Counted from the first letter of the stretch, positions 3,211 to 41,009 are shown. The stretch: DNA of 42,430 nt from a virus (IMGVR_UViG_3300031578_000123:1-42430); one strand, 5' to 3'. The notes: a model not told the origin generated them from the letters alone. Translations and numbers: made by a program.

Positions 3211-4876
3211 TATGAATTTGACGGAAACGAGAGCAGCCCTGATAATTGACCTGGCGGATGCGGCCTGGGATACTGGTGAGCTGGACAGAGGAGTAACAAA
3301 GGCTGTTGCTGACCTATCCAGATTCCTCCCAGATGAGGCGGTCTATGAGCATACCTTTGTCCTTGAGGTAACAGATGGACCGTGGACAAGTGCTGCTGCT
3401 CATGGAACCTATGTGGAGTTGGCCAATAAACCAATCAAATGGGATTCTGAAACAATCAAAAGTGCTGATGGTGTTACTACATATACCAAAAATACGGATT
3501 ATACCTTTGACTATATGAATGGCAAGGTGACCACTATCAGTGGTGGTTCTATGGCTGTGGGTACTGCCTATCTAGCTACATATACCAAATACAGAGAGGG
3601 CATTGATATTGGTTCCATGGATACCAACCTAATTAGGGTTAGGAGAGTGGAATATCCACTAAGCTCCGAGGCCGTGATGAAGTTTGTTCCATTCTTTATT
3701 TGGGGTAATATCCTCTATATTGCATCCGAGCAAATGGCGGACAAGAAGCATATAGCTATTTATTATGATAAGGAGTGTACCGCACCAACTGTTACTGAGG
3801 ATGGTAGCTTTGACCCTGTATTGGATGAGGTAATCCTCAAAGGTGCTGCTGCCTATGCCTTGATGTCCAAAGGTCTAAAAGCTGAACATGATGCCAAAAT
3901 TGCCATTGGTGCTGCTGATACCGCTATTGCTACCATTGATAAAGCCAATGCCGAGACAGCATTAAGTAGTGTTGCTGGTAGGATAACTGCTGCCACCACA
4001 GCATTAGAAAAGATTACCTCAGAAGCTGCTGCTATTGGAACAGCCCTAACTGGTATAGCAGCTTACCTAACCCTAGCTGATGCTGCTCTGGTCAAGGTGC
4101 CTATTGAAGTAGCAAAAGCTGGTAGTGATACTGGTGAGGATATGGAGAACATAAATAACCTACTCACCGATGCAGATACCGCTTTGGATAGTGTTGCTAC
4201 CAAGATTACTGCAATGGGAACAGCATTAGCTGAGTTAGCTGCTATGTGGACAGATGAGATAACCTTCAGAACCTATGCCAATGCTTACCTAGAATCAGGT
4301 GATGATTACATCAATAAGGTTAATGTTGGTGACAGTGTAGCTAATCTCTATGCTACCTATGCACAGGTACAAGCTACCTTGGCGAGGTTGTCCGAGAACA
4401 GAAGGGCTGGTAAACTAACCGAAGCATCTACCCAATTATCTGGTGCTTCACAGCATATTGGTGAGGCTAACTCCAGAGCTAACCTTGTCAATGGTTATAT
4501 CTCAGAAGCCAGGGAGAGGGTAAACCAAGCCAGAGCATATGTGGATGAGGCAAGTGGTTGGGTAGCTCTAGTTGATAGGCTAGTAGCAAATGCCAATACC
4601 AGATTGGGATTGATTACCAATTACATTAGTGAGGCTAATACCAATATGTCCCAGGCTGGTGGGCACATTGCCGAAGCTACTAGCAGACTAGCTTGCCAGG
4701 AGCTAATAGCTAGACAGGCTGATACATACAATGCTATTGCTACACAGCAAATGTCACTAGCAGAGAAATACCTAGCCGAAGCTGTTGAGCGTAGGAATGA
4801 GTTTTGGAGTATATTGAAGGACAAAAGTCAGATGCGTAGGGAATACAGTTTAGTATCCCAAAGACAAGCAGTATGA
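3211..4876 (+). CDS. Structural protein with long Ala-rich coiled-coil C-terminal half
   Basis: ATG at 3211 preceded by GGAGGTG (preferred over the track start 3179). About 300 aa of heptad-like, Ala/Glu-rich sequence with repeated ISEA motifs. Confidence 0.7.
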
Positions 4877-5358
4877 ACTATTTAGAGGAAACCGAAAAGG
4901 CATATTTGGCTGGTATTGTGGACACAGAATGCCATCTTGGTATTACAATCAAACACCAAAAAACACGGCGTAATCCTATATATGCTCCCACATTAAGGTT
5001 GACCATGATAGACCCTGAGGTGGTTTGGTGGGCACACGAGTTGACTGGTCTTGGTTCTGTGCATCTTTTACCACGGAAACCACCTTGTCATGATATATGG
5101 TTATGGGCAGTCACACACAGGGAGCTGGAAGAATTGCTACCTGAAATAGAGCCTTATTTACTGGTTAAAGGTGAAACAGCCAGATTGATATTAGAATTTA
5201 TGGGTAGGTTAGGTTCAACAAAGGTGAAATCTAATGAGGAGCACCAAACTAGATTGGATATGGTATTCCGAATCCGCCAATTAAATCAAGCCAATAGGTT
5301 GGACAAGCAGCAAATGAGAAGGGAGTATAGCTTGGTAGCACAAAGACAGTCAGCATGA
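4873..5358 (+). CDS. Free-standing LAGLIDADG homing endonuclease (single-motif type)
   Basis: KAYLAGIVDTECHLG motif near the N-terminus; 161 aa; ATGA overlap with the upstream stop, in a different frame. Confidence 0.85.
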   Translation: MNYLEETEKAYLAGIVDTECHLGITIKHQKTRRNPIYAPTLRLTMIDPEVVWWAHELTGLGSVHLLPRKPPCHDIWLWAVTHRELEELLPEIEPYLLVKGETARLILEFMGRLGSTKVKSNEEHQTRLDMVFRIRQLNQANRLDKQQMRREYSLVAQRQSA

Positions 5359-13088: not shown

Positions 13089-13118
13089 ATTATAGCTCCT
13101 GACATAGCAGCTTGTCAA
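13089..13118 (-). promoter_or_regulatory. Consensus sigma-70/sigma-A promoter TTGACA-N18-TATAAT (leftward)
   Basis: -35 at 13118..13113 and -10 at 13094..13089 on the minus strand, about 30 nt upstream of the 13056 start. Confidence 0.7.
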
Positions 13119-13119
13119 G

Positions 13120-13162
13120 TTGACATAATCCTAACTGATTGACATAATCCATTTAACATAAT
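13120..13162 (+). repeat. Decamer array: TTGACATAAT x2 (13120, 13139) plus TTAACATAAT (13153)
   Basis: Direct reading. The first copy is back-to-back with the minus-strand -35 (TGTCAAgTTGACA palindrome 13113-13125). Confidence 0.9.
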
Positions 13163-20652: not shown

Positions 20653-20682
20653 ATTATAATTCCTAGCTATTGATGCTGTCAA
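20653..20682 (-). promoter_or_regulatory. Consensus promoter TTGACA-N18-TATAAT (early leftward)
   Basis: -35 at 20682..20677 and -10 at 20658..20653 on the minus strand, about 85 nt upstream of the 20562 start. Confidence 0.7.
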
Positions 20683-20733: not shown

Positions 20734-20791
20734 TTGACATAATACCACCGATTGACATAATGTTGCTTGACATAATCCTAGTTGACATAAT
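20734..20791 (+). repeat. Decamer array: TTGACATAAT x4 (20734, 20752, 20767, 20782); degenerate TTACATAAT at 20829
   Basis: Direct reading; spacings of 18, 15 and 15 bp. Confidence 0.95.
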
Positions 20792-22682: not shown

Positions 22683-22748
22683 ATGACATAACACTCAATG
22701 GTTGACATAATACTAAATATCCGAGTTGACATAATGACTTGACATAAG
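22683..22748 (+). repeat. Decamer array: ATGACATAAC (22683), TTGACATAAT (22702, 22726), TTGACATAAG (22739)
   Basis: Direct reading. The first copy lies back-to-back with the leftward -35. Confidence 0.9.
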
Positions 22749-22767
22749 ATTATCAACATGATACAAT
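22739..22767 (+). promoter_or_regulatory. Promoter TTGACA-N17-TACAAT with extended TGn -10 (rightward)
   Basis: TTGACATAAGATTATCAACATGATACAAT. The -10 ends 6 nt before the ATG at 22774. Confidence 0.7.
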
Positions 22768-24300: not shown

Positions 24301-24593
24301 TGTCTGCCGTAGGTGAGGTGTTCTCTGACATCCAATCTGTGGAAAATAATGCCTATCTAGACATTAGACCAGCCAGTGGCAAGGAAGCTGTGGTCAATAA
24401 TATCTATTTCGAGGATGATGTGGAGATTTCCTTCTATGATGGAACTAACGAGGTGGATTTTGATTCTGCCACTGGTGCAGGTATCTATTCCAGATTTGGG
24501 TTTGATGTAACATATACTGATAGGATAAGGGTGAAGAATGTTGGTGGTGAGGCTCATCCGATAGGCTACTCAGGAAGGTACACAAAGTCATGA
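24300..24593 (+). CDS. Hypothetical structural-region protein
   Basis: 97-aa ORF, coupled on both sides. Confidence 0.6.
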   Translation: MSAVGEVFSDIQSVENNAYLDIRPASGKEAVVNNIYFEDDVEISFYDGTNEVDFDSATGAGIYSRFGFDVTYTDRIRVKNVGGEAHPIGYSGRYTKS

Positions 24594-25633
24594 TAAAAAC
24601 ACCAGAAACATTGGATATGCTTAGGGATGTTAATATTCCTTCTCCAACGGATGATTATGTTCTGGCTTATAATGCTACCACTGGACTATGGGAAGCTGTT
24701 GCTGCATCTGGTGGAGTAACTGACCACGGTGCATTAACAGGTTTAGCTGATGATGACCATTCCCAATACCACACCGATGCTAGAGGTGATGCCAGATACC
24801 TATACCGTGAGAATGTGGCTGCATTTACTCCTGATGGTAATTATGAACCTGCTACTAAGAAATATGTGGATGATAATATCGGTGGCGGTGGGCTCTCCTT
24901 TCTGGAATTTACCATTGAAGAACATTTCATGGATGTATTACTTGATGCTGGTGGAGCTAATGGCACGGGTAATCCAGCGATAGCTCAGAAGGTTATTACT
25001 GCTGTTGGTTGCACAGGGCTAACAAAGGCTAATGGATTCTTGGTAATAGAACTAAAATGCACAGCAGGAACACTTGGTGAAGTTGGACAAATAGAATTAA
25101 CTTCCTCAGGAACATGGGATGATGAAGAATGGCATATTGACCCTCCTTGGAGTGATATAACCACTGAGTGGAAAACCTTTATCTTACCATTAGCAAATGC
25201 AGTAACACAGGGTGGTGAACTTAATCCTTCCAAAGGCATAAGTTTTATTAGATGGTATAATATTTCCACTGATGGCAATGTAACCATTTATTGGAAAAAT
25301 GCTCATATCCGTTATGCGGTTCCCATACCTACGGGTGTTTCAGGTTATCTTGAGGTTCCTGCAGCTTGCACAATTAGCCAAGTAACCATGCTTGCCAATG
25401 AATCAGGCTCAATTATTGTGGATATTTGGAAGGATACCTATGCTAATTTCCCACCAACTGATGCAGATTCAATAACCGCAGTAGCACCACCAACCATAAC
25501 CACAGCCCAGAAGTCCCAAGATAGCACCCTCACCAACTGGACTATATCACTATCTGCTGGGGACATATTGGCTTTTAATGTGGACTCATGCACAACCATC
25601 ACTAAGGTAACAATTATTATTAGAATGTCATAA
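24590..25633 (+). CDS. Tail fibre-like protein
   Basis: N-terminus LRDVNIPSPTDDYVLAYNATTGLWEAV and DDDHSQYH are typical of phage fibre N-terminal regions. Confidence 0.65.
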   Translation: MIKTPETLDMLRDVNIPSPTDDYVLAYNATTGLWEAVAASGGVTDHGALTGLADDDHSQYHTDARGDARYLYRENVAAFTPDGNYEPATKKYVDDNIGGGGLSFLEFTIEEHFMDVLLDAGGANGTGNPAIAQKVITAVGCTGLTKANGFLVIELKCTAGTLGEVGQIELTSSGTWDDEEWHIDPPWSDITTEWKTFILPLANAVTQGGELNPSKGISFIRWYNISTDGNVTIYWKNAHIRYAVPIPTGVSGYLEVPAACTISQVTMLANESGSIIVDIWKDTYANFPPTDADSITAVAPPTITTAQKSQDSTLTNWTISLSAGDILAFNVDSCTTITKVTIIIRMS

Positions 25634-26021: not shown

Positions 26022-27581
26022 ATGTCAACCCAGACTGCATTATTTGAGGAGCTTATCCACGATAAGGTGAAATTCATTGAATCATTACTCCTTATCGAAA
26101 ATAAGCAATCCAGGCGTGTACCGTTCATCCTAAATCCAATCCAGCGTGATGCCCACAGGGTTGAGACTGGTAGGGATATGTGGGTCAAACCTGCACAGGT
26201 TGGATTTAGCTCTGATAGGTTAGCTACCAGACTAATAGATACCATTACTACTCCTGGCACCAACACTGTCCTAATAGCTTATGAGGAATTCATTACCCAG
26301 AGATTATTGGACAGAGCACAATTTTTCTACAATGTACTTAACTCCTTAGGCATCCCAGGGTTTCCCCAAATGAGCCACCATTCCTCATATGAAAAGACAT
26401 TCCCTGACATCCATAGCTCCATGTATATCAGTTCCGCAAGGAGTTATGTTGCTGGTAGGGCTGAGACTATCCATCACCTATTGGCGGATGAACACGCTTT
26501 TTGGGAACCAGGAGCAACTGAGAGAATCCTGGCTCCAGCCATAGACAGGGTTCCTCCAGATGGCACAATAGATATACTATCCACTCCTAATGGTCAATAC
26601 AATGATTTCCATGATATGTGTATGATGGCTAAGGAGGGTGAATCTGTATTTGCATACCATTTCTATCCTTGGTTCATGCACCCAGAATATAACTTAACCA
26701 CAGATAGTATATTACTAACCAAGGATAGTGCTCCTGGATGGGCTAGGGAGCTTAGAACATATGAGCTAAATCTTGACCCAGATGAAGATAAATTAGTTAA
26801 TAACCACAATCTAACATTTGACCAAATTCGCTGGAGGAAGTATAAAATCCAGGAAAAGAAAAGCCTGAGAAGGAGTGGCGAGCTTGTTAAACTATTCCAG
26901 CAAGAATACCCTGAGGATGATGTATCCTGTTGGCTGGCTGCTGGAGATATGTATTATGACACCGATGTGGTTAACCAGTTAGCCAAGGGATGTTACCCAG
27001 CACCTATACATGAATACAATGCTAATGTATGGTATCCTCCAGAACAAGGCAAGTGGTACCTAGTGTCCATTGACCCAGGACAGGCTAAGGTTACCCAAAC
27101 AGCTATTGTTGTCCTAAACTTCCAAGATGATAAACCTACCTATTGTGCTAGGGCAGCAGGGTTATGGGGACCAGAAACCACAGTGCACCATGCTTTGGAA
27201 CTAGCCAGATATTACAACAATGCTATGGTAACATGGGAAGCAAATTCCCATGGATTGGCAATAGCTCCATTGATAAAGGGTTGGCCGAATGTTTACTTTC
27301 GAAGGGATGTAGTTAGTGGCAGGGAATCCAGTGAATTGGGATGGTTGACCACTCCTAAGACTAAGGATTTCATGCTCCACACAACTGCAAGGATGCTAAA
27401 TACCATGACCGTGCATGATATAGATTTCCTCTCTGAATGTAGAAATATCCGTTTGGCTGGAGATAAAGCCGTATCGGTAGGTGCCGATGACATCCACGAC
27501 GCTGTTTGCATTGGGTTAGTTTGTAGAGATAGCAGACCAGTAAACCGTGGATTTGTCGGTACCTCAGGTTATAGGTGGTAA
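26022..27581 (+). CDS. terL: Terminase large subunit
   Basis: Walker A-like KPAQVGFSS, Walker B HHLLADEHAF, coupling motif LSTPNG, nuclease-domain VSIDPGQAK; 519 aa. Confidence 0.9.
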   Translation: MSTQTALFEELIHDKVKFIESLLLIENKQSRRVPFILNPIQRDAHRVETGRDMWVKPAQVGFSSDRLATRLIDTITTPGTNTVLIAYEEFITQRLLDRAQFFYNVLNSLGIPGFPQMSHHSSYEKTFPDIHSSMYISSARSYVAGRAETIHHLLADEHAFWEPGATERILAPAIDRVPPDGTIDILSTPNGQYNDFHDMCMMAKEGESVFAYHFYPWFMHPEYNLTTDSILLTKDSAPGWARELRTYELNLDPDEDKLVNNHNLTFDQIRWRKYKIQEKKSLRRSGELVKLFQQEYPEDDVSCWLAAGDMYYDTDVVNQLAKGCYPAPIHEYNANVWYPPEQGKWYLVSIDPGQAKVTQTAIVVLNFQDDKPTYCARAAGLWGPETTVHHALELARYYNNAMVTWEANSHGLAIAPLIKGWPNVYFRRDVVSGRESSELGWLTTPKTKDFMLHTTARMLNTMTVHDIDFLSECRNIRLAGDKAVSVGADDIHDAVCIGLVCRDSRPVNRGFVGTSGYRW

Positions 27582-27582
27582 A

Positions 27583-27789
27583 ATGAAATTAACTTGGGAA
27601 GAATGTCATGCTTTTGTTATAGGATTCGGTCATGCCATTTGGATTTGGAAAAGACTTCCAATGCCATTAAATTATAAGAATCCACTAGAAGAGGAGTACC
27701 ACTATTATGTTGCTGGTGGTGCTACCGCTGTACTTATAATGGTGGGTATTATTGTTGGTATGATAATTTACATAGGGAGGCTAATATGA
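27583..27789 (+). CDS. Small membrane protein
   Basis: ATG at 27583 after GGTGGTAAA; C-terminal TM GGATAVLIMVGIIVGMIIYIG. Confidence 0.55.
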   Translation: MKLTWEECHAFVIGFGHAIWIWKRLPMPLNYKNPLEEEYHYYVAGGATAVLIMVGIIVGMIIYIGRLI

Positions 27790-29468
27790 CTGAGTTGACT
27801 TCAAGGAACATAATAACCCAGTGTACCGAGCTAAAGAATTATTGGAGTGTTAGGAATAAGCAATTCCAAGACTGGTATGACATATTGTTATTGACCAACG
27901 ACTTGGAACAGGAGGACATGGAGAGTGTCATATCCAATGACCCTGGAACATCATTCAGAATGGCTCTCCATCTATTAACATCTAGTATCATATCCCATAA
28001 GATACCTACTGAAATGCTGGAACGCCCTGAGATAGTGGATACCAGCAAACTAGAGCATTATGTAACTAACCATTGGCTGAGACTAGGGAATAACCACAGG
28101 AGATTAGGTAAGCAATCATGGCTTAGGGAGCTGGTTAGCCTTATGTTGGCTACTGGATGGTATTCTGTATTTGTCCTAGCTACCCCGAATGAACTAATAG
28201 CTGAGGTCTGGAATCCGATGGAGGTATTCCCTGAATTCTCTAGTGATGGTTTGCTCCGCTGTGCCCATGTTTACCCACTAACACCAATGGCTGCAAACCG
28301 TAAAGCAAAGCTGAATAAGTGGCCTATTGAGAGACCATTCAATTCTCCTACCACCCTATACAATTACTTTGTGGTGGATGATGATGGTGATGTAGCTAAT
28401 GCCATCGTTCTTGGTAATAACCTTGTCAGACCAATAACCAAGCTTGCTAGGAATGAACAGGCATCCGATGTTATACCAATATTTGTGTCTCCTGTTGCTG
28501 GACTCCCTGATATGGGGATAATTAAATCTGGCAAAGGGTGGCAGAAAAACTATGGTGAATCCATAATTGCTGTAAATGCTGTGGAGTATAAGAACCAGAA
28601 TAAGATGCTATCCTATATCCAACAATTGGTTAGGGATTCTGCCAATCCAAGATGGTTTGAACAGTCCCGTAGTGATAAAGGTATATTGTCACCAGAGACC
28701 ATCTTCAAGCGTGGTGGTATATTCCGTGGTAGTCCAGAGGACAATGTTACTCCATTGCCAACTGTTCCAATCCCAGTAGAGATAAGAACCATACTATTTG
28801 ATTATGCCAATAGAATCCAGAGAGGTTTATTCCCTTGGGCTATATTTGGAAACGTACAGCAAACCACATCAGGTTATATGATGTCCCAAATTGCTGCTGC
28901 TGCCATGAACGCTCTTACTCCATACGCTGAGGCAATGACTGGACTGATAGGTGATGTGGATAATTACTGGCTCCATGAGATTAAGGAGCGTGGTCTTAAA
29001 CCATACAAACTTGAAATGCCAAAGAATATCCCACCTGATGCTGAGTTTGTGGTAGAATACAACATCAATATCCCTGGTAGCCTAGTCCAGCGAGCAACTG
29101 TGGCTAGGATGCTAGACCCAACCTTTAGATTTGATTTTGCTACCACTACTGATTTACTATTCCCCGAAATCAAAGACCCATTGAGGGTACAGGGTAGAGT
29201 CAACAAGGATGATGCTATGATGAATGAAATAGCTCAAGCCTTAGCCTTAATAGATGTTTACCGAACTATGGCAAGGGAAGCTAAAGAAGATGGGGATGCT
29301 ACTACCTCTGCATTGTACACCAAAGCTGCTGATGCTGTGGAAGCCCAATTAGGAGGAGCACAGCCAAAATCACCAGCACTACCTAGAGCCAAGGAGGTTA
29401 GGACAGCAGCACCAAGAGAGGAAGGGATGGCTCCTACACCGTCTGGTGGAGCACTTGAGGGAATGTAA
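27786..29468 (+). CDS. Portal protein (by position and size)
   Basis: 560-aa ORF directly after TerL and before the head genes; no motif verified. Confidence 0.65.
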   Translation: MTELTSRNIITQCTELKNYWSVRNKQFQDWYDILLLTNDLEQEDMESVISNDPGTSFRMALHLLTSSIISHKIPTEMLERPEIVDTSKLEHYVTNHWLRLGNNHRRLGKQSWLRELVSLMLATGWYSVFVLATPNELIAEVWNPMEVFPEFSSDGLLRCAHVYPLTPMAANRKAKLNKWPIERPFNSPTTLYNYFVVDDDGDVANAIVLGNNLVRPITKLARNEQASDVIPIFVSPVAGLPDMGIIKSGKGWQKNYGESIIAVNAVEYKNQNKMLSYIQQLVRDSANPRWFEQSRSDKGILSPETIFKRGGIFRGSPEDNVTPLPTVPIPVEIRTILFDYANRIQRGLFPWAIFGNVQQTTSGYMMSQIAAAAMNALTPYAEAMTGLIGDVDNYWLHEIKERGLKPYKLEMPKNIPPDAEFVVEYNINIPGSLVQRATVARMLDPTFRFDFATTTDLLFPEIKDPLRVQGRVNKDDAMMNEIAQALALIDVYRTMAREAKEDGDATTSALYTKAADAVEAQLGGAQPKSPALPRAKEVRTAAPREEGMAPTPSGGALEGM

Positions 29469-29722
29469 TGTGTGATATTTGTGATGTAATGCTAAGGTAT
29501 GGGATAACTGATGTCCATTCCAGCAAGGCTATTTCCTTGTGTCTGAATTGTCCTGAACCAGTGTGCCTATTGGGAGTAGACCATAAACAGCATATGTCCC
29601 ATGGTAGGATAGCTGAGGCTTCCAGACTAGCTGGTTCTGGTCTTGGTACAGCAGGGATAGCCAAGACAATGCACAAGAGCAAAAGACAGGTATTAAGATA
29701 TTTGGAGGAAGTAAATGCCTAA
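29468..29722 (+). CDS. Cys-rich plus HTH small DNA-binding protein embedded in the head module
   Basis: CDIC...CLNCPEPVC, then GSGLGTAGIAKTMHKSKRQVLRYLEE (LuxR/sigma region-4-like HTH by eye). Confidence 0.6.
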   Translation: MCDICDVMLRYGITDVHSSKAISLCLNCPEPVCLLGVDHKQHMSHGRIAEASRLAGSGLGTAGIAKTMHKSKRQVLRYLEEVNA

Positions 29723-32700
29723 TGGTTTTGCTGAAGAACTAAGGAAATGGAATGAACAACTCCAAGGGAGTATAACTAGGCTGACATCCGTTGAATCAGA
29801 GGTTGCGGGACTGAGGAAGAAAACTGAGAAGCCATTACCTTGGTGGCAGAGATTGATATTTTGGACTCCTCCGTCCCAATGGCAAACAGTAAGTAAATTG
29901 GCAGGGGAGCAGATTCCTTCTCCAGCTACACCAGAGTTTTGGGCTAAGAGACCTATTGAGGAGAAGCTACAAGAGGAACTTGTTGCCATAGATGATTATA
30001 ACCGTGCTGCATGGTTCTCCGTACTTTATTCTGTTAGTCCAGATGACCTTAGGAAGCTAGGTATCACCAGCTTTGAGGACTGGGTTGAAAAGCATCCTCC
30101 TGAGGCTGGGACATCCACCACTGATTTAACCAGAGCAAAGGAATACATAGACACAATACTTTCTGTTGCTGAACCAACAAAACCTACCATAGCTACTGAG
30201 GAAATGATAGCCGAAGGATTCCTTACAGAACCTTTGGAAACAAGACCTAGATTCAAGGGCATCCATATAACAACTGTGGAAGAAATGACAAAGTGGCTCA
30301 GGAAGGAAGTACCTCCAGTAGAACGCCCTCCAGGATTAACAGAAGGTGGATTGTTAGGCTATCTTAAGGAGGAAAGAGGTCTCAGTGATGAGGAATTAGC
30401 CTACATAGATGAATCCGTTAGTCCTTTTATACAGATGGTTGAAGAGTATGAGGAAGGAAGGGAACAAACAGCACGGTATAAAGCTGGGTTAGAAACTCCA
30501 GAAATGCCTGAATTGTCCATTGGTCAGAAGATTAAACTGATTGCTTCCCAACCGATACTAGCCTTGATTGACACCATGCAGCCCTATTGGACATATTGGG
30601 ACTACCCTAGGTCTGCTATCCTTGCCAGACTTTCACACCGTATTGAGGAGACATTGAGTTTTCCCATTACTATGCCTGGTGCTAAACCTACACCAGAGGA
30701 GGAAGGATTACTTGATGAATTGGATACTCTATATGAGGCTAACAGGGAAGCTGGCATGGATTATTGGATGGCTCACAGCAAAGCATGGCAGGATTGGGAA
30801 CTTAACCATTGGGCAAAGATGGGCATTGAGATAATCTCTGACCCTGTGTCATATCTTGGGTTTGGTCTCTTGATGAAGGCTGGGAAGGCAACCAAAGGTA
30901 TACCCGTCATAGGTAGGATAATGGGTGGGCTAGGCTCCTTTGAGCGTGGGTTTATAGCAGTTACCGAAGCGTTACCTACATTCATTAAGTCCAAAATAAT
31001 AAAACTTCCAAAAACCACAGGACAGAGGGCTGCTTTGGCTGGTGCAGAGGTTAGTGATACCATAATATCAGTGCATGGTAAGAATGCTTCTGGTTTAGGG
31101 AAAACATTAAAGCAGATAACTCCAGATGATTTTGTTAAACTAAATGAGGAGTCAATAGCCCGTGCAGTAGCACACCCAGATGTTGTTGACCCACTTACCC
31201 AGCTTGGTTGGTCTTATATCAAAAGAACTCCAATGACCCATAATGAACTGTTGGAATGGGGAGCTAAGGTTACCTCCAAACTAGGTCCTGATGATGTCAC
31301 ACCAGGCATGGTTGACAACATAGAGAGAATCCTTGAACACGCAAAGGTTAAGGGTAGCAGGTTTCCTGTTAACAACCTTGACCTAGCTGCTAAGGAAATC
31401 CTACTAGGAACCCTGAATGTGGCTGATTCACCTAGTAACATGAAGGTCATAAAGTCCTTAATCAGGAAAGCCTATAAGACCAGCATTGATGAAGCCTTAG
31501 AAACAGCACGATTACCAATAACCCAATCCATCAAGACCGCTTCCCTAAAAGCTGAGAATATAGTTTGGTCGGAAGCCACCGAAAAACTATTCTTTAAGAG
31601 GATGCACCAAGGCTATGTTGCTGGTATAATGCACGAAGTCCTTGACCCACTAGAAACCCAAGTATGGCGTGGTTTTATAGACAAACAAATAGTTATGCCA
31701 TTTGCCAGAGCATACCTCATAACTGGTTCCTATGCTCCTTGGAACTGGTTTGAAGAAGTATTCAGGACTGTGCTTGGTAGAGGTGGAGGAGTCTATGGCA
31801 AGAACGCTCCAGCTAGATTAGAAAATCTTGCTATGGGGTTAATGCTTGATAGGGATGTTCTTAGAGGAGCAGAATTAGCCAAGATGTCATATACCAATAT
31901 ATTGAAGAAAAGGTTGCTGAAACCTGGTGCTCCCGTTGGCATGGGTGAAATATCTGAGGCTGCATTACTCAAGGAAACTGCTGAGGCTGTTGGTAAACCA
32001 GCACTAGAGAAACTATTGCTCCTTGGCTGGTTACCAGGTGGCAAAGGTAGAGCAGTCCATGAGGCAATGTATTTCCCAATCAGAGCTTCCCAGTGGGCTG
32101 GTGGTATGCAGCGGGCTGGATATGTTGCTAAGAAATTCTTTGACAACCTTGATGATATAGCACCTGATACAATGGCAGCTCTCAGAGGAGCAAAGCCTTC
32201 TAAACCACCAAGCGTTATAGGTCAACCTAGGAAAGCACAAAAGGCTTTTCTCCAACGGTGTGATGATAATGCTTTTATTGGTCCAACAAAGACCGAGAAC
32301 ACACCTAGAGAGTTTTCCATGAAGAATACCTCCTTAGCCGAGGGTTATTCTGCCAGTCTAAAGTATCCTGAGCTTGGTGACACCAGAGATTTCATCCTAA
32401 GCCATATTGAGACTGATAATTGGGATAATGTTCTTGCTGTTACTGGTGAAGCCAAGACCATGATGGCGGATAACCTAATCAATTCTCCAGAAGGTAGTAG
32501 GATATTCCTCAAGAACATTACCGATGACATACTGAAAAATGCTGAGAAGGTAACCACACCAGATGAGCTTATGGGTTATGTGGATGCTCTTAGGGAAATT
32601 ACAGGGATAAATCCTAAAACCATCCAAAAGCTATTTGTTGGTCTCCATGACAAAGCATCCAAGCTACCATCAAAAGCAGCAAGGGTAGAAATGTATAATG

Positions 32701-35396
32701 TTGGTCACCAGAGCATTGCTCCATTCCTTGACGAGGGTGAAAAGCAAGCTGGGAGGTTGTTAAACTTTATAAAGAAGAATTCAAAGGTATTGACTCCCGC
32801 ACAGGTAACAGAGCTTAACAAAACCCTTAACATATACACAGCCAGGATAGCAGCTTTGCAGGACACCAGGCGTTTAGCTATGGCTAGGAGCCAAGAACTT
32901 ATAGCTCAGGGTTTTGGTCCTGGTAGTGATAAGTTTGTGGCTGAAAGGAATGAAATTTGGATGAAGCACCTTAATGAGGTGGACCCTGAGTTATTTGCCA
33001 CACAGGAAATGCTGGCTGAGGGTATAGATACCTTAATAACACCTAGGAACATACCAAAACCCACCATAAATGCCTCAGTTAGAGGATTAACTCCAGCCGA
33101 TGTAGCTGCATTGCATTATGGCACAGGAGACCAACTAGCCTTTGGTTTAATGAATTCCGAAATGCTGATGCAAAAACCATACTACATGAAACTGACCATA
33201 GCCAGAGCTAATGCTATGGCAGCAAGAGCCAATACCACCCGTGAAGCCTTGGGATTTACCGATGATGCCATATCCCAAGTTTATGACCAGATACTTTATA
33301 GTCTGAGGTCTAGTCCAGAATTCCACAATATGCTTACCAGACCCTATGCTGAGGTGGATAACTTTGCCAGAGATTTGGAATCCATCAAATTAGCTGGTGG
33401 CACCAGTCCTGATGCCATGAAAGCAATGCAGGATTATGCTACCACATATGCTAACAACCTGAGGAAATTGGACATATACAAACCTTATGTTCCACCAGCT
33501 AAACCCCCAAAGAAACCAGCAGTCAAACTTCCTGGTGAAGGCTCCGAAGATTGGTGGCGTATTAAACAGGAAGCTATGGATAAAACAATGATTTCCTATC
33601 ACCAAGACTTCACCGACTATTCCAACATGAACGCTTTGGATGATGCTATGAGACACGTATTTCCATACTGGGTATATGAATCCCAGCGGTGGTTCTGGCT
33701 TGCTAGGAACATGGTAACCCATCCAGGAATTATGAACACTTGGGCTAAATACATGGATAACACGGACTTTGGTTACATCCATATGCCAGGTACTTCCCTA
33801 GATGCCAATGTCCTCAGAGGTACTGTTTACAAAGGTGGCATGAGTACCCTTGTCCGCAGGGACTATCCAGAATACTATGATAGGATGTTCCCTGAATTAT
33901 TTGAATCAATGGATTATGCCCAAAGACTAGGATTCTTCCCCAATATATTCTGGAGTATTCCAGTATCTATGTATGGTGGCAGACAACCACAGTTTGGACA
34001 GTTACTTCCTGCTGTGGCTAGAACTCCATTGGACTTATATGTTGCCTCCAACCCTGATTCCGAATCTGCTAGAGCATTGCAGGATATACTATTCCCTGAT
34101 TACTTTAGGCAGTATCTCCAAATAACCCAAGCCTCCCATATGGCTAGTGTTGGACAAATCCAAAGAGGCATTAACGGTGTGTATATCTGGGAAAAGATGC
34201 AGCGTAGTGAGGAACTTACCTTAGAAGAACAGGAACTATGGGATGCTGCTAGAGGTAAAGTAGCTTCCTATGCTCCACTAATGGAACACGGTGGCATATA
34301 CCGCCTAAGACATGAGGACAGAATAGCAGCCTATGATTGGTGGGGTAAATTCATTGAGGAGAAAACCGGTGTGTCTGTGGAAATGCAAGATGACCTGAGA
34401 AAGCACGGTATGTCCGTAGGTGATGTCTGTCCTGGGTTATCACAGTTGGATATGGCACAGATAGAGGAAGCATTGGAGTACAAAAGATGGATTGCACCTA
34501 GAGCAACTGCACCACTAAGACCTAGTAATGAGATTGAGGTTAACCTAATCCTATCAGAGTTTTGGGGTATGGTAAGGCAACATGGGGATACCTCAGAAAG
34601 TTCCATAAAGGAACTGGAGAGACAAGCCTTTGTTGAGAGGAGTATCTCCGCTGAGGATTATGTTACCAGGGTTGGAGATATTATGGAGGAAAATGCTAAG
34701 TATATCCACCAGCTCAGAGGTGATAAGTTTGACCACACCACAGGGGAGTGGGAAGCCAATCCTCAGAGTAAGAGTAAATTCAAGATTGTCCCTGTAACCC
34801 TTGATGAAAGGTCAGCCTTTTATACCGAAAGGGGAGTTAATCTGTCCATGTCCACCCTAGATGAAATGCTGGCTATGTGGTATGATATATCCCCGCAGGA
34901 GAAGATAGACCCTGAGACTGGTACTAGATACATGGATTGGGGAACCTACTTTGCCACTATGGATGCTATTGAGAAATTGCTTCCTACCAGCCTAAAAGCC
35001 GAATGGCAATCCTATATGTCTAGGAATAATACTCCAGGCTGGCTCATGTATAGAAATGCTACCAAGCAATATCTAGCTCCGTATTGGAATGTAACCAATG
35101 TCATTAAGGACCAATTCACCCCAGATGAACAGTCCCTAATAGATGAGTATTACATGGTTAAAGATATTGACCCAGCCAGAGCCGAGGAGATTCAGGACAT
35201 GACCAGACCCAATGGACTAAAGCTTATATCCCAATATAGGTCTGCTCTTACCAATGCCAGGAAGAAGCTAAGAATGACTGTTCCAATGGTAGATGCCCAA
35301 CTTATGTTTTGGGGTAGGACTTCTACATTTCTTACTCCAGAGGCAGAGAGGATGTATAACCAATTAGTACAGGAAGCTAAGGGGTTCCCTCAGTGA
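29715..35396 (+). CDS. Giant protein (1,893 aa) of unknown function; candidate internal virion/ejection protein
   Basis: Uninterrupted 5.7-kb ORF between portal and scaffold; no catalytic motif recognised by eye. Confidence 0.8.
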   Translation: MPNGFAEELRKWNEQLQGSITRLTSVESEVAGLRKKTEKPLPWWQRLIFWTPPSQWQTVSKLAGEQIPSPATPEFWAKRPIEEKLQEELVAIDDYNRAAWFSVLYSVSPDDLRKLGITSFEDWVEKHPPEAGTSTTDLTRAKEYIDTILSVAEPTKPTIATEEMIAEGFLTEPLETRPRFKGIHITTVEEMTKWLRKEVPPVERPPGLTEGGLLGYLKEERGLSDEELAYIDESVSPFIQMVEEYEEGREQTARYKAGLETPEMPELSIGQKIKLIASQPILALIDTMQPYWTYWDYPRSAILARLSHRIEETLSFPITMPGAKPTPEEEGLLDELDTLYEANREAGMDYWMAHSKAWQDWELNHWAKMGIEIISDPVSYLGFGLLMKAGKATKGIPVIGRIMGGLGSFERGFIAVTEALPTFIKSKIIKLPKTTGQRAALAGAEVSDTIISVHGKNASGLGKTLKQITPDDFVKLNEESIARAVAHPDVVDPLTQLGWSYIKRTPMTHNELLEWGAKVTSKLGPDDVTPGMVDNIERILEHAKVKGSRFPVNNLDLAAKEILLGTLNVADSPSNMKVIKSLIRKAYKTSIDEALETARLPITQSIKTASLKAENIVWSEATEKLFFKRMHQGYVAGIMHEVLDPLETQVWRGFIDKQIVMPFARAYLITGSYAPWNWFEEVFRTVLGRGGGVYGKNAPARLENLAMGLMLDRDVLRGAELAKMSYTNILKKRLLKPGAPVGMGEISEAALLKETAEAVGKPALEKLLLLGWLPGGKGRAVHEAMYFPIRASQWAGGMQRAGYVAKKFFDNLDDIAPDTMAALRGAKPSKPPSVIGQPRKAQKAFLQRCDDNAFIGPTKTENTPREFSMKNTSLAEGYSASLKYPELGDTRDFILSHIETDNWDNVLAVTGEAKTMMADNLINSPEGSRIFLKNITDDILKNAEKVTTPDELMGYVDALREITGINPKTIQKLFVGLHDKASKLPSKAARVEMYNVGHQSIAPFLDEGEKQAGRLLNFIKKNSKVLTPAQVTELNKTLNIYTARIAALQDTRRLAMARSQELIAQGFGPGSDKFVAERNEIWMKHLNEVDPELFATQEMLAEGIDTLITPRNIPKPTINASVRGLTPADVAALHYGTGDQLAFGLMNSEMLMQKPYYMKLTIARANAMAARANTTREALGFTDDAISQVYDQILYSLRSSPEFHNMLTRPYAEVDNFARDLESIKLAGGTSPDAMKAMQDYATTYANNLRKLDIYKPYVPPAKPPKKPAVKLPGEGSEDWWRIKQEAMDKTMISYHQDFTDYSNMNALDDAMRHVFPYWVYESQRWFWLARNMVTHPGIMNTWAKYMDNTDFGYIHMPGTSLDANVLRGTVYKGGMSTLVRRDYPEYYDRMFPELFESMDYAQRLGFFPNIFWSIPVSMYGGRQPQFGQLLPAVARTPLDLYVASNPDSESARALQDILFPDYFRQYLQITQASHMASVGQIQRGINGVYIWEKMQRSEELTLEEQELWDAARGKVASYAPLMEHGGIYRLRHEDRIAAYDWWGKFIEEKTGVSVEMQDDLRKHGMSVGDVCPGLSQLDMAQIEEALEYKRWIAPRATAPLRPSNEIEVNLILSEFWGMVRQHGDTSESSIKELERQAFVERSISAEDYVTRVGDIMEENAKYIHQLRGDKFDHTTGEWEANPQSKSKFKIVPVTLDERSAFYTERGVNLSMSTLDEMLAMWYDISPQEKIDPETGTRYMDWGTYFATMDAIEKLLPTSLKAEWQSYMSRNNTPGWLMYRNATKQYLAPYWNVTNVIKDQFTPDEQSLIDEYYMVKDIDPARAEEIQDMTRPNGLKLISQYRSALTNARKKLRMTVPMVDAQLMFWGRTSTFLTPEAERMYNQLVQEAKGFPQ

Positions 35397-35434: not shown

Positions 35435-35458
35435 TTGACATAATGATATTGACATAAA
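35435..35458 (+). repeat. Decamer pair TTGACATAAT (35435) and TTGACATAAA (35449)
   Basis: Direct reading. Confidence 0.9.
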
Positions 35459-35478
35459 GCTACTAGCTATGATACAAT
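35449..35478 (+). promoter_or_regulatory. Promoter TTGACA-N18-TACAAT with TGn (capsid cassette)
   Basis: TTGACATAAAGCTACTAGCTATGATACAAT, 34 nt upstream of the scaffold ATG. Confidence 0.7.
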
Positions 35479-35511: not shown

Positions 35512-36045
35512 ATGGCTGATGAACAAGGGACTCAGACATCTAACCCACCAGAAGGACCAAAGATGGTTCCAGAGAAAGACCTTTTGGCGGTAAAGGTGGG
35601 TGCAGAAAGGAAGGAAGCTGAGTTGCTTACCCAGGTAGCTGAGGCTAACAGGGTTAAGGAAGAAACTCACAACAACCTTCTTGCTATGCAGGCTGCCAAG
35701 GAGCAGCTTGAGACACAGCTTAGTGAGGGTACTGCCACCAAAGCACAGGTAGATGACCTTCAAGCCAAACTAAAAACTGCCGAGGTATCGGTAAGTGGCT
35801 TAACCAATAAGCTACTTGACCAAAAGAGAGCCATCATTGCATCTTATGGTGTAGATGTCAGCACTCTTGTTGGTAAGACCCAGGAACAACTGGATGTTTG
35901 GGAGGAAGCCCTGAAAGCAACAGGGCAGAAACCCATACCAGCCAGATTAGATGTTGGTGGAGGTGGTGGAGGAATTGCTGCTCCTGCAACTGCATTGGAA
36001 TCAGCCGTTGCGGAGATAGCAGGAATCCGAGGTAAAATGAAATAA
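35512..36045 (+). CDS. Scaffolding protein candidate
   Basis: 177 aa, helical and charged (LAMQAAKEQLETQL...), immediately upstream of the major capsid gene. Confidence 0.65.
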   Translation: MADEQGTQTSNPPEGPKMVPEKDLLAVKVGAERKEAELLTQVAEANRVKEETHNNLLAMQAAKEQLETQLSEGTATKAQVDDLQAKLKTAEVSVSGLTNKLLDQKRAIIASYGVDVSTLVGKTQEQLDVWEEALKATGQKPIPARLDVGGGGGGIAAPATALESAVAEIAGIRGKMK

Positions 36046-36058
36046 GGAGGAATAAATT

Positions 36059-37072
36059 ATGGGAGCTGTTGTTGGACACTGGAAAAATTTAACCGAAGCT
36101 CAAAGATTGACTGAATCCCAGTTGCTTCCTGGTGTTGTTGAGGAAATCATCAAGCGGGAAAACTTGCTGGAGCGTGTTCCTGTGGCTCTTGCTCAGGGAA
36201 AGTCCATAAAGTGGAACCGAGAAAAGGTAACCTTGGAGGCTGATGTCCAGAATCTGGATATTGGTCAACAGATGTCCTGGGTTTCCAGTATGGAATATGA
36301 CCCTCAGGAGACCACTTTGGTGAGGAAAGGTATGCAGAGACTCTTGGATAACTTCATAGTTGATGTCTATGGAACCGTCCAGAACTACGAGGCTCAGGCT
36401 TTGCTTGAAATCAAGAAAGGTGTTACCTTAGCATTGGGTGATAACCTAATCTATGATGACCCTGCTGCTGATGCCAAGCAGTTTGTTGGTCTGCATGACC
36501 TGGCCTATCTCCAGACTGGAACTGACTTGGATATTGACATGGCTGGTGCTCTGGAGCTTAATAGGCTAAGGATGCAGATTGATGCCATGAAGCATGGTGT
36601 GGACATTATCTATATGCCTATGGTCATTGCCCGAAGGATGGATGCAGCCTACCAAGAGAGAGGCTTTGCAAGTCTAGGTACTGCCTCTAGCTCTTTTGCC
36701 ATGATTAGTTATGGACTTAACGAAATGGGCAAGAGGATAATGTTCTTTGATGGGATTCCTATTATAAGGACTGATTTCCTGGTGAAGGAAGATGATGGTA
36801 GTAATGCCCCTAGAACCAAGAACACGGCGGGTGCTGCATACTCAATCTTTATGATAAAGTTTGGTGATGTGTTTGCAGGTAATCCTGGTCTCTGTATGGG
36901 ATTTGGAGACCCTGAGATGGGGAGCCAGCTTTACAGGATTGAGTTGTTTGACAAGCTGGAGAACTATGATGCCAAAGGGATTAGATTAGTCTCATATGTA
37001 GCACCGTTGCTAGGTAGTAAACTTTGTTTAGGCAGGATTTACGATGTAACGGATGCTCCGATTGCTGCCTAG
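36059..37072 (+). CDS. Major capsid protein (HK97-fold type, by position and pattern)
   Basis: 337 aa after the scaffold gene; AAGGAGGAATAAATT RBS; sequence pattern resembles HK97-like capsid proteins (unverified). Confidence 0.75.
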   Translation: MGAVVGHWKNLTEAQRLTESQLLPGVVEEIIKRENLLERVPVALAQGKSIKWNREKVTLEADVQNLDIGQQMSWVSSMEYDPQETTLVRKGMQRLLDNFIVDVYGTVQNYEAQALLEIKKGVTLALGDNLIYDDPAADAKQFVGLHDLAYLQTGTDLDIDMAGALELNRLRMQIDAMKHGVDIIYMPMVIARRMDAAYQERGFASLGTASSSFAMISYGLNEMGKRIMFFDGIPIIRTDFLVKEDDGSNAPRTKNTAGAAYSIFMIKFGDVFAGNPGLCMGFGDPEMGSQLYRIELFDKLENYDAKGIRLVSYVAPLLGSKLCLGRIYDVTDAPIAA

Positions 37073-39232: not shown

Positions 39233-40084
39233 TTGAAAACTTATGAGTTTAGCATAGGTGGATACAACTTCAATGATTGGAGTAGGGTGAAAGAACTCTA
39301 TGTCCCTGAGGACATAAGCAACAGCACCGATAAGTCTCTCCATGTGAGAGGACGGGAAGCTCTACCACACCATCTACAACACTATGTAATCCCGAATGAT
39401 AAGGTATTTATAGCCTTCGCCTTAACCAATGTCTTGCTTTCAGCTAACACTGGTATAGGCTTGTTTGGTACGGGCAAAGGTTTTGGAAGGTATCCTGAAA
39501 GCCATCAGCAGCCTGGAGATGATAACCCTGGTGCTCCTTTTGCTTGGTCTCCAACATATTTCTATTTAGGAAACTACTATTGTGGAGGAACTTGGGGAAG
39601 TCTTGTAATACACAATGGTAGAATTTATGAGTGCTGTCAAACCCATGCTCCTAGTGCAGATAAAGAACCTTCACCAGCAGGTGATACTGCTTACTGGTTA
39701 AAAGGAAGTGAGTGGAATGTGGATTGGGAAGTTGGTAAGTTCTATTTCTTCAATGAGCTTGAAATGGTTACTGTGGAGGGTGTAGCTGGAGCTTATATGT
39801 GTATGGTAGACCATACCTCAGAAGCCAGCAACAAGCCTTGTGATGATGACTGGGATGACATTTGGAATCCTGGAGATGAGTTCACAGCTGATTTAACATC
39901 CCAGTATGGGTTTAGTAAGAAGTGCCTTAACATCTCCAAAGGCATAACCAAGCCTTTTGATGCGGAGGTTTTGGCTGTGTTTGATGGCACTACTAGCACC
40001 TATGGGAGGCGGATTGATGCCATGACCAGTGGTGGTACTATGAAAGCTGGTGCTACTTTATTGGGTATTGAGATAAATGCTTAG
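39233..40084 (+). CDS. Tail/fibre-associated protein, long paralog with ~140-aa Cys/Trp/Tyr-rich insertion (TTG start)
   Basis: GAGGAG RBS 6 nt before the TTG. The insertion has two segments resembling CBM5/12-type carbohydrate-binding repeats (by eye). Confidence 0.6.
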   Translation: MKTYEFSIGGYNFNDWSRVKELYVPEDISNSTDKSLHVRGREALPHHLQHYVIPNDKVFIAFALTNVLLSANTGIGLFGTGKGFGRYPESHQQPGDDNPGAPFAWSPTYFYLGNYYCGGTWGSLVIHNGRIYECCQTHAPSADKEPSPAGDTAYWLKGSEWNVDWEVGKFYFFNELEMVTVEGVAGAYMCMVDHTSEASNKPCDDDWDDIWNPGDEFTADLTSQYGFSKKCLNISKGITKPFDAEVLAVFDGTTSTYGRRIDAMTSGGTMKAGATLLGIEINA

Positions 40085-40538: not shown

Positions 40539-41009
40539 ATGAGGACAATTACCAAAACGGACAAAGCCTATGCAGCAGGTATCCTGGATGGAGAAGGCAA
40601 TACTGGTATTTATAAGATGGTTAGAAACACTAAATATAGCAATCATCCTATATATAGGTTAATTGTTGGTATATCTAATACAAATAAAGAAGTAATACAA
40701 TGGTTAACTGAGACATTTGATTGCTGTCATCCAACGCTTAGGTATCCAAAGACGGTTGATGGGAATAAACCTATATATATGGTTAGATTTCAGGACTTAA
40801 ATGCTATTGCATTTTTGGATATAGTTAAGGATTATGTAATAATAAAGAGGTTGCAGGTGGCATTAGCATTGGGTTTTGGTGAATTTCAAAGTGAGCACAA
40901 TTATAAGGGTAATAACAAAGTTCCAGAATGGGTCATGTGCAGACGGGAGGGTTTTTATCAATCATCCAGATTCTTTAATCAGGTAGGAGTGAACCATGAG
41001 AGTGATTAG
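40539..41009 (+). CDS. Free-standing LAGLIDADG homing endonuclease (second copy, diverged paralog)
   Basis: KAYAAGILDGEGNTG motif; 156 aa; AT-rich relative to its neighbours; overlaps the downstream start by 14 nt. Confidence 0.85.
   Translation: MRTITKTDKAYAAGILDGEGNTGIYKMVRNTKYSNHPIYRLIVGISNTNKEVIQWLTETFDCCHPTLRYPKTVDGNKPIYMVRFQDLNAIAFLDIVKDYVIIKRLQVALALGFGEFQSEHNYKGNNKVPEWVMCRREGFYQSSRFFNQVGVNHESD

Follow-up and report, generated by a model that had tools for sequence, protein, structure and literature searches.

The stretch of DNA analysed here, IMGVR_UViG_3300031578_000123:1-42430 (42,430 nucleotides, hereafter the window), is a near-complete double-stranded DNA phage genome. On its plus strand, at 29715..35396, it carries an open reading frame (ORF) of 5,682 nucleotides (nt) that begins with ATG, is unbroken throughout and takes up 13.4 % of the window, exactly as an earlier note on this sequence had described it (an uninterrupted 1,893-aa ORF, 13% of the genome). 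The ORF encodes a protein of 1893 amino acids (aa), 214 kDa and pI 5.6, referred to below as the giant protein; an identical protein is also encoded on a 43,977-bp contig. Our analysis established that the giant ORF is a genuine, essential-looking gene and the minimal, bare-scaffold form within a large and so far unannotated family of giant proteins encoded in the head module. Its product is probably an essential protein that is packaged in the capsid and ejected at infection as a pilot or ejectosome protein, analogous to T7 gp16, MuF and the polyvalent proteins, with no detectable homology to any of them.

All features of the ORF are given on the plus strand. The start at 29715 is well supported because a Shine-Dalgarno sequence (GGAGGA, 29704..29709) precedes the ATG by 5 nt, the start codon itself overlaps with the stop codon of an 84-aa ORF just upstream (ATGCCTAA) and the N-terminus MPNGF is conserved, recurring in homologues. 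The probability of 1893 open codons in a row, calculated from the base composition of the window, is about 1e-49.5. The protein contains two cysteines. In agreement with the earlier note, which had seen neither repeats nor catalytic motifs, self-BLASTP of the protein returned the identity match alone, and a motif scan for DxDxD, DxDGD, HExxH, Walker A and GDD found none of these five types.

Several landmarks can be distinguished along the protein. The N-terminal ~60 aa (MPNGF..., 29715..29894) include the point, at about aa 4-13, where SLT or glucosaminidase domains are attached or inserted in relatives. The most hydrophobic conserved block of the N-terminal region, at aa ~260-430 (30492..31004), bears a DPxxYxGxG motif and includes a Gly-rich stretch, SDPVSYLGFGLLMKAGKATKGIPVIGRIMGGLG (aa 375-407, 30837-30935), in which D376, P377, G382, G384 and G400 are invariant among close relatives and D376, P377 and G382 are at least 90 % conserved in an alignment of 80 members. 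This stretch holds 5 charged residues and has a mean Kyte-Doolittle (KD) hydropathy of 0.53. No transmembrane (TM)-grade segment was detected, the best 19-residue KD window in the whole giant protein scoring 1.21, under the usual TM threshold. Across the family the maximum of such windows has a median of 1.36 and reaches at least 1.6 in 13 of 80 members; the region of the Gly-rich stretch is the top hydrophobic window in 33 of the 80, with a KD of at least 1.6 there in about six. The stretch that was proposed to be membrane-active is therefore conserved and lies in the most consistently hydrophobic region of the family, and it is not of TM grade; an interaction of the region with membranes is possible.

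Further downstream lies a conserved motif, DKQIVMPFARAYLITGSYAPWNWFEE (aa 655-680, 31677..31754), of which L668, N677 and E680 are invariant in the 80 members. The most conserved part of the protein is the C-terminal domain (aa 1276-1893, 33540..35393), which is always C-terminal in the giant proteins. Within it, the most conserved motif block, FPYWVYESQRWFWL...KYMDN (aa 1316-1350, 33660..33764), is the target of inteins in relatives and is uninterrupted in the window, and a C-terminal subdomain (aa ~1629-1886, 34599..35372) is both the best-modelled part of the protein and common to an otherwise unrelated protein, P0012, described below. Two candidate motifs were considered and rejected: a Walker A reading of GLLMKAGKAT, which has incorrect spacing and a non-conserved G390, and a reading of 'DFTDY' as part of an aspartate triad, in which the first Asp is not conserved.

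Database searches agreed with the statement of the earlier note that the protein has no recognisable domain. Nothing passed the cut-off in Pfam (best E 0.088), no PHROGs family matched, and tblastn against 50,697 deposited phage records gave no match for the giant protein or for two family consensus sequences. PDB sequences likewise gave 0 matches, phmmer and family profiles returning generic helical bundles at E >0.02. The protein is thus not a concatenation of well-known domains, a possibility which that note had raised: its core of ~1,900 aa matches nothing known. AlphaFold2, run on two pieces (aa 61-1260 and aa 1276-1893) with shallow alignments of 11-12 sequences, produced two models that are nearly all alpha-helical according to DSSP, with the longest helices at ~40-42 residues; the last ~260-290 residues were modelled with fair confidence (predicted local distance difference test, pLDDT, ~75-90).

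An exhaustive HMMER search with a profile of the C-terminal domain (aa 1276-1893) recovered 542 cluster representatives at E <=1e-3, 369 of them at <=1e-30; these clusters are defined at 50 % identity and the family is to be counted as at least 542 of them. Nearly all representatives are 1,800-3,283 aa long and carry the domain at their extreme C-terminus. A word-indexed search, by comparison, brought up no more than 11-12 relatives, each of metagenomic origin and 1,639-2,816 aa in length, and returned the same 12 proteins whether it was given the protein, an 11-sequence alignment or an 80-sequence alignment, missing more than 500 relatives. It under-reported the family more than 40-fold, and an 'orphan' verdict drawn from it alone would be wrong. 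Across 80 full-length relatives identity runs from 82 to 22 %, with landmarks conserved along the entire length. Since landmarks of the N-terminal part are also kept in the 80-member alignment (DPxxYxGxG at ~aa 376-384 and PFARAYL...Y.P.N..E at aa 662-680), the whole ~1,900-aa core is one conserved architecture. In a length census of 118 non-redundant members the range is 1752-3283 aa with a median of 2153, which places the window copy, at 1893 aa, near the short end. About one quarter of the family starts with M-P-N-G and some members keep M-[PT]-N-G-[FW] ahead of an inserted SLT domain; this start, which is not universal, may reflect a conserved signal at the N-terminus with a possible function in targeting or processing.

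One distant protein shares the end of the giant protein and little else. P0012 (1639 aa, L001 10001-14920 on a 60.4-kb contig) has only its last ~260 aa in common with the family (hhalign 97 %) and its gene occupies the same slot, followed directly by a 313-aa gene and by the gene for an SU10-type major capsid protein (MCP). Because P0012 shares it in that slot, the C-terminal subdomain is a module that giant head-module proteins of another phage lineage also use.

The identical window protein is present on three contigs. The window sequence was found in soil metagenomes, positive soil runs holding it at 98-100 % of sampled words, and matched more weakly in groundwater. The only match in 185,579 species genomes was the 40,616-bp contig CAZNXD010000001.1 (L004), binned in a metagenome-assembled genome (MAG) of an 'uncultured Pirellulales'. 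This contig is phage-sized and carries the terL-portal-giant-scaffold block. It is likely a mis-binned phage genome, failing which it would be a weak hint of a host, and it was not used as host evidence; as a lone MAG match it points to a free-living lytic lineage and not to prophages.

The giant ORF belongs to the rightward module of the window, which encodes the virion. This region begins with the gene for the large terminase subunit (TerL, 519 aa, 26022..27581, plus strand, as are all genes of this region), which matches 284 phage records annotated as large terminase. It is followed by a portal-position gene (560 aa, 27786..29468), assigned by position and size only and lacking any match in phages or PDB even at E 10, and by the 84-aa ORF (29468..29722), which has a Cys-rich N-terminus, finds a homologue in 2 of 53 loci and stands outside the conserved unit; a helix-turn-helix motif in this small ORF was not confirmed by searches. 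Downstream of the giant ORF, a 115-nt gap contains the best sigma70-like site of the region (TTGACA-18-TACAAT with an upstream TG, 11/12, 35449..35478). Then come a scaffold-position gene (177 aa, 35512..36045), which is also assigned by position and size only and has a weak coiled-coil-type match, and the MCP gene (36059..37072), which matches phrog_212 and has ~25 % identity to deposited MCPs by tblastn.

This order, TerL - portal-position - giant ORF - scaffold-sized - MCP, is nearly invariant in the family. IMG/VR yielded 80 loci, whose complete-looking contigs cluster at 40-47 kb; a homologue of the portal-position gene lies directly upstream of the giant gene in 51 of 53 loci (median gap 22 nt), and in 39 of 47 loci an MCP homologue follows it after 0.6-1.1 kb. 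SPP1 has the same gene order, its minor head protein gp7 (MuF) occupying the slot of the giant ORF, while the TerL relatives ctQWt234 and Roseobacter phage CRP-7 show terL-portal-small ORF-scaffold-MCP with the giant gene absent. The earlier note had located the ORF between portal and scaffold, in the slot of minor head or ejection proteins. The slot itself, after TerL and before MCP and equivalent to that of SPP1 gp7, is upheld by these loci, as is the capsid cassette downstream; the portal and scaffold labels rest on position and size, and the promoter attributed to the cassette corresponds, as a sequence match, to the near-consensus site described above.

Mapping of the insertions of relatives onto the giant protein revealed four hotspots: the N-terminus, ~aa 1024, ~aa 1260 and aa 1319-1350. 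At the first, SLT lytic transglycosylase domains score above Pfam cut-offs in P0059, P0094, P0132 and P0129, and glucosaminidase domains in P0100, P0114, P0155 and again P0129; with three further borderline members, N-terminal hydrolases occur in 7-10 of 80 relatives, always at the very start of the protein (relative start positions 0-0.06 in the 118-member census). The two internal hotspots, both empty in the window, accept cassettes. At aa ~1024-1040 (32784..32834) about 20 of 80 relatives are enlarged by 100-382 aa. In the Pro/Lys-rich linker at aa ~1250-1280 (...KPYVPPAKPPKKPAVKLPGEGSE..., 33462..33554) modules of up to 1,041 aa (zincin-like, ART-like, where ART stands for ADP-ribosyltransferase, or unknown) are present in 50 of 79 relatives. 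The same module families occur at either slot. The commonest cassette, found in 23 of the 118 members, bears the zincin signature HExxH...E.FA..F, intact in 11 of 14 aligned copies; the second, in 12 of 118, has the R-S-ExE triad of ARTs (YRGsG...NVTSS...ESELiIP). Pfam recognised ART-PolyVal in P0140 (E 1.1e-16) and, weakly, in P0129, P0148 and P0155. In all, 42 of the 118 non-redundant members carry at least one recognised module, and most of the 18 cassettes tested match nothing in Pfam. The survey of homologue length and domain swapping that the earlier note had advised thus gave the key evidence, the swapping taking place at the N-terminus, ~aa 1024 and ~aa 1260 and not at the C-terminus.

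A C-terminal extension of 946 aa was observed in P0011 (2816 aa, L003 1406-9856), with strongly hydrophobic Gly/Ala-rich segments (19-residue KD 2.06). The extension holds a zincin motif, HEIGH...EFFATSYEAY, and has a weak Reprolysin_4 match (E 6e-3).

The fourth hotspot is of another kind. Inserts of ~300 aa with the anatomy of inteins interrupt 12 of 80 aligned members (P0004, P0009, P0021, P0024, P0026, P0030, P0043, P0062, P0086, P0098, P0108 and P0121) and 13 of 118 in the census. The 12 sequences share a Cys or Ser at position 1, a block B TxxH, two LAGLIDADG motifs, a terminal ...TGN and a Ser or Thr at +1; their penultimate residue is Gly instead of the usual His. Removal of the insert restores the family consensus FPYWTYESQRWFWL or KYM..GYIH. 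Pfam did not recognise these inserts, and a profile of them against PDB gave inteins or BIL domains as seven of its eight top matches, weak at E 0.06-1. Insertion takes place after W1319, after E1322 or near M1347, three points of a single 30-residue motif block; the corresponding site in the intein-free window copy is 33660-33764. Inteins persist in essential genes at highly conserved sites, and their presence marks aa 1316-1350 as functionally critical, which is not in itself proof of catalysis. Other mobile genes were also seen in these genomes: two paralogous HNH homing-endonuclease genes lie inside the virion module of the window (40539-41009 and 4873-5358, both plus strand; both phrog_5046, E ~2e-17) and a free-standing LAGLIDADG gene lies between the scaffold and MCP genes of L002 (17732-18190). 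Taken together with the inteins, they indicate a lineage heavily colonised by selfish elements.

The reading of the giant protein as packaged and ejected follows from its head-module slot beside the portal-position gene and from the muralytic and effector fusions of its relatives. A peptidoglycan hydrolase fused to a structural-module protein is a hallmark of virion-associated entry enzymes. In addition, no other gene in the window is large enough (the next largest proteins have 565, 560, 548 and 519 aa) or annotated as an ejection protein, tape measure or lysin, and none of these was recognised elsewhere in the window. The nearly pure alpha-helical models, with predicted helices of ~40 residues as described for gp16, would fit such a protein, and inteins lodged in 13 of 118 members within a 30-residue motif suggest essentiality and constraint. 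We infer from this that the giant protein is present in the virion, is ejected and serves as a conduit or pilot.

A possible course of events can be proposed. The giant protein would be made together with the head proteins, right after the portal-region genes and translationally linked to them, and a few copies would be built into the procapsid. At infection it would leave through the portal and tail channel ahead of the DNA or with it, its largely helical chain unfolding and refolding, and, as a pilot or ejectosome protein, would then help the genome to cross the cell envelope. The ~1,900-aa helical core may be regarded as a delivery chassis: the N-terminal hydrolases of relatives would breach the wall, and the two internal slots (~aa 1024 and ~1260) would carry swappable effectors acting on the host, namely zincin-type peptidases and ADP-ribosyltransferases. 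The window copy, in which the N-terminal site and both slots are empty, would represent the minimal chassis.

Among known systems, T7 gp16 is similar in being large, predicted to be largely alpha-helical and fast-evolving, with homologues known mainly by size and synteny, and its N-terminal lytic transglycosylase has a counterpart in relatives of the giant protein, although not in the window copy. Ejection proteins in general have been described as largely helical, refoldable and very fast-evolving, recognised by size and synteny and endowed with a swappable or dispensable N-terminal hydrolase (PMC8954989). The differences are nevertheless substantial. There is no detectable sequence or profile similarity to T7 gp15 or gp16, the gene follows the portal-position gene and not tail-tube genes, and internal effector cassettes are found in relatives. 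Moreover, gp16-like proteins span 609-1337 aa (PMC8954989), whereas the family consists of single polypeptides 1.4-2.5 times larger than any listed; the remark of the earlier note that such proteins are usually far smaller than 1893 aa was thus correct. The T7 proteins gp14, gp15 and gp16 together amount to 196 + 747 + 1318 aa, and the family core of ~1,900-2,200 aa comes close to this sum, which invites, without proving, the analogy of a single-chain ejectosome. In its boldest form, which we put forward only tentatively, one ~2,000-aa polypeptide would replace a multi-protein ejectosome (or a tape measure) and double as a modular injection chassis, with an N-terminal dock, two plug-in slots and a C-terminal domain that would be a new unit, either a pilot domain binding the DNA end or portal or a new enzyme.

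MuF proteins offer a second comparison. Like SPP1 gp7, the giant protein is encoded downstream of the portal gene, except that in the window the 84-aa ORF intervenes. Polyvalent proteins combine 2-15 effector or enzymatic domains, ART and zincin types included, and were inferred to be packaged in the capsid and injected (Iyer et al. 2017, PMC5512222). Relatives of the giant protein carry the same kinds of ART-PolyVal, zincin-type and muralytic modules as the MuF-anchored polyvalent proteins, and the same logic may apply, that of an anchor taking effectors into the capsid and then into the host. The giant ORF has the location of polyvalent proteins among terminase, portal and head genes; multiple effector domains are lacking in the window protein, recognised modules being a property of 42 of 118 relatives. 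Neither a Phage_Mu_F nor a portal domain was matched by Pfam in the query or 27 relatives, and the anchor would be a conserved core of ~1,900 aa instead of a MuF domain of ~110 aa. Phage T4 Alt is a head-packaged ADP-ribosyltransferase, which is small and packaged via a cleavable targeting peptide. The ART modules of the relatives resemble it in sitting on a presumably head-packaged protein; the window protein has no ART.

A number of observations weigh against a packaged and ejected protein. The lineage is uncultured and 0 of the 50,697 phage records match. The argument rests on domain fusions in relatives and not in the window protein, which has no muralytic, ART or zincin module according to Pfam and a family-derived module census, so that the cell-wall penetration and effector or toxin functions suggested in the earlier note find support in relatives with SLT, glucosaminidase, ART or zincin modules and none in the window copy. 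Most cassettes are without Pfam support, the zincin and R-S-ExE assignments resting on conserved motifs. The giant protein has no TM-grade helix, a difference from the gp14/gp16-type proteins, all of which are reported to contain TM helices (PMC8954989). The AlphaFold2 confidence is low to moderate (mean pLDDT 61-62), and aa 1276-1425, the most conserved segment, was left unmodelled. The fold comparison advised in the earlier note was completed with Foldseek against PDB (twice) and BFVD, and the helical models gave nothing significant (best E 0.25-0.49, TM-score ~0.1). Finally, hhalign returned probabilities of 0.2 % against SPP1 gp7, 0.2 % against T7 gp16, 1.4 % against T7 gp15 and 0.4 % against N4 gp50, with a sensitivity limited by the use of single sequences as T7 gp15 and gp16 templates. 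Tape measures and alpha-pore-forming toxins (XaxB, AhlB, NheA) appeared among the fold matches as non-significant helical-bundle noise and were not used.

Three other explanations deserve consideration, all of them unlikely to about the same degree. The giant protein could be a tape-measure-like protein housed in the lumen of a long tail and ejected from there, which would make the phage a siphovirus with its tape-measure gene relocated to the head module. Length, alpha-helical structure and fast evolution are typical of tape measures, some of which carry muralytic or zincin domains, T5 pb2 being an example. In these respects, as in their probable ejection, the giant proteins of the family resemble them; no other tape-measure candidate was recognised in the window, the nearest deposited relatives of the window MCP are long-tailed phages and searches with tail-region genes pointed to no tail type. 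We nonetheless consider this explanation improbable. In 51 of 53 loci the gene stands between portal and scaffold genes and does not follow tail-tube or chaperone genes; helices do not exceed ~42 residues and are broken by conserved Pro, Gly and aromatic motifs, so there is no single long coiled coil; internal repeats are absent; and length varies through large globular mid-protein cassettes of up to 1,041 aa, unfit for the lumen of a tail tube. The TerL relatives of the window phage, furthermore, are short-tailed.

Equally low odds would be given to a capsid-packaged enzyme whose C-terminal domain is catalytic on nucleic acid, such as a novel virion RNA polymerase or an enzyme binding or translocating DNA ends, with the helical remainder being accessory. 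N4 gp50, a virion RNA polymerase, is giant, capsid-packaged and injected, and the size of the giant protein is comparable to that of virion RNA polymerases; no phage RNA polymerase was found among ~30 ORFs scanned in the window. Inteins typically sit in active sites of nucleic-acid enzymes, and here they enter one motif three times. The C-terminal domain also has conserved D1301, R1325, R1331, D1383, D1400, R1404 and K1494, and the segment that AlphaFold2 did not model lies within it. Against this, DxDxD, DxDGD and T7-type motifs are absent, there is no conserved His, Cys or Ser, hhalign gave no support for similarity to the N4 enzyme and neither fold nor sequence matched a polymerase. The promoters of the window tell against it as well. 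Perfect 12/12 sigma70 promoters lie at the head of the leftward early operon and at ~13.1 kb, and several 11/12 sites occupy divergent intergenic regions (12/12 and 11/12 sites at 20653-20682 and 13089-13118 on the minus strand and at 20734-20761, 22739-22767 and 13120-13148 on the plus strand). Given the perfect sites at the early operon, the phage seems to rely on the host RNA polymerase; the sequence suggests that its transcription is carried out wholly by that enzyme, which would then suffice, a further difference from N4.

Just as doubtful is a head-assembly factor that is never ejected, acting as a very large scaffold or core inside the head or as a chaperone at the portal, and being either removed from the capsid or kept in it. 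The slot between portal and scaffold genes, the helical and acidic character of the protein and the lack of a recognised prohead protease between the portal and MCP genes are compatible with such a role. However, the N-terminal hydrolases and the ART and zincin effectors make sense only with access to the host envelope and cytoplasm, and a separate scaffold-sized gene already precedes MCP. As for a chance ORF, an assembly chimera or a decaying pseudogene, no point in its favour was found, and the length of the open frame, the identical protein on three contigs, the 542 representatives and the strong ribosome-binding site effectively refute it.

Other genes of the window were also examined. Genes for a family-A DNA polymerase with 3'-5' exonuclease, for a DNA methylase and for a DnaB-like AAA_25 helicase make up part of the leftward module. 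In the tail region, a 409-aa protein (1563-2792, plus strand) shares 31 % identity over residues 213-400 (E 2e-15) with a hypothetical protein from the virus ANMV-1, which infects uncultured archaea; no other deposited phage or virus record matched it. A 283-aa protein of the virion module (39233-40084, plus strand), in which the carbohydrate-binding module CBM_5_12 scores slightly over the Pfam cut-off (E 3.3e-6), is a candidate receptor-binding or decoration protein. Upstream of TerL, a 347-aa gene (24590-25633, plus strand) matches phrog_35197 through its C-terminal 100 aa (E 1.8e-30) and also phrog_10330, a 'virion structural protein' (E 3.7e-13); small terminase is one candidate role for it.

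The success of infection is decided by the phage proteins that accompany the DNA, although no part of phage genomes is less conserved or more poorly annotated. In the present case, a ~43-kb phage lineage of soil and groundwater spends at least 13 % of its genome on one such gene, and neither Pfam, PHROGs nor the deposited phage genomes searched contain the family to which it belongs (at least 542 clusters at 50 % identity). Functionally, the giant protein is in keeping with the packaged and ejected phage proteins already known; its sequence and architecture set it apart as a new family with a chassis-and-cassette organisation. The single-chain chassis, if real, would be a third independent solution to protein-assisted genome delivery, beside the gp14/15/16-type ejectosomes and the MuF-anchored polyvalent proteins, and its family would constitute a large untapped source of uncharacterised injected effectors, most of the cassettes being unannotated. 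The dozens of such cassettes at the two internal hotspots are candidate effectors against the host or its defences. Hundreds of giant 'hypothetical proteins' in viromes can now be labelled as members of this family, whose conserved helical core with fixed docks for muralytic enzymes, ADP-ribosyltransferases and zincins suggests a general chassis for protein injection.

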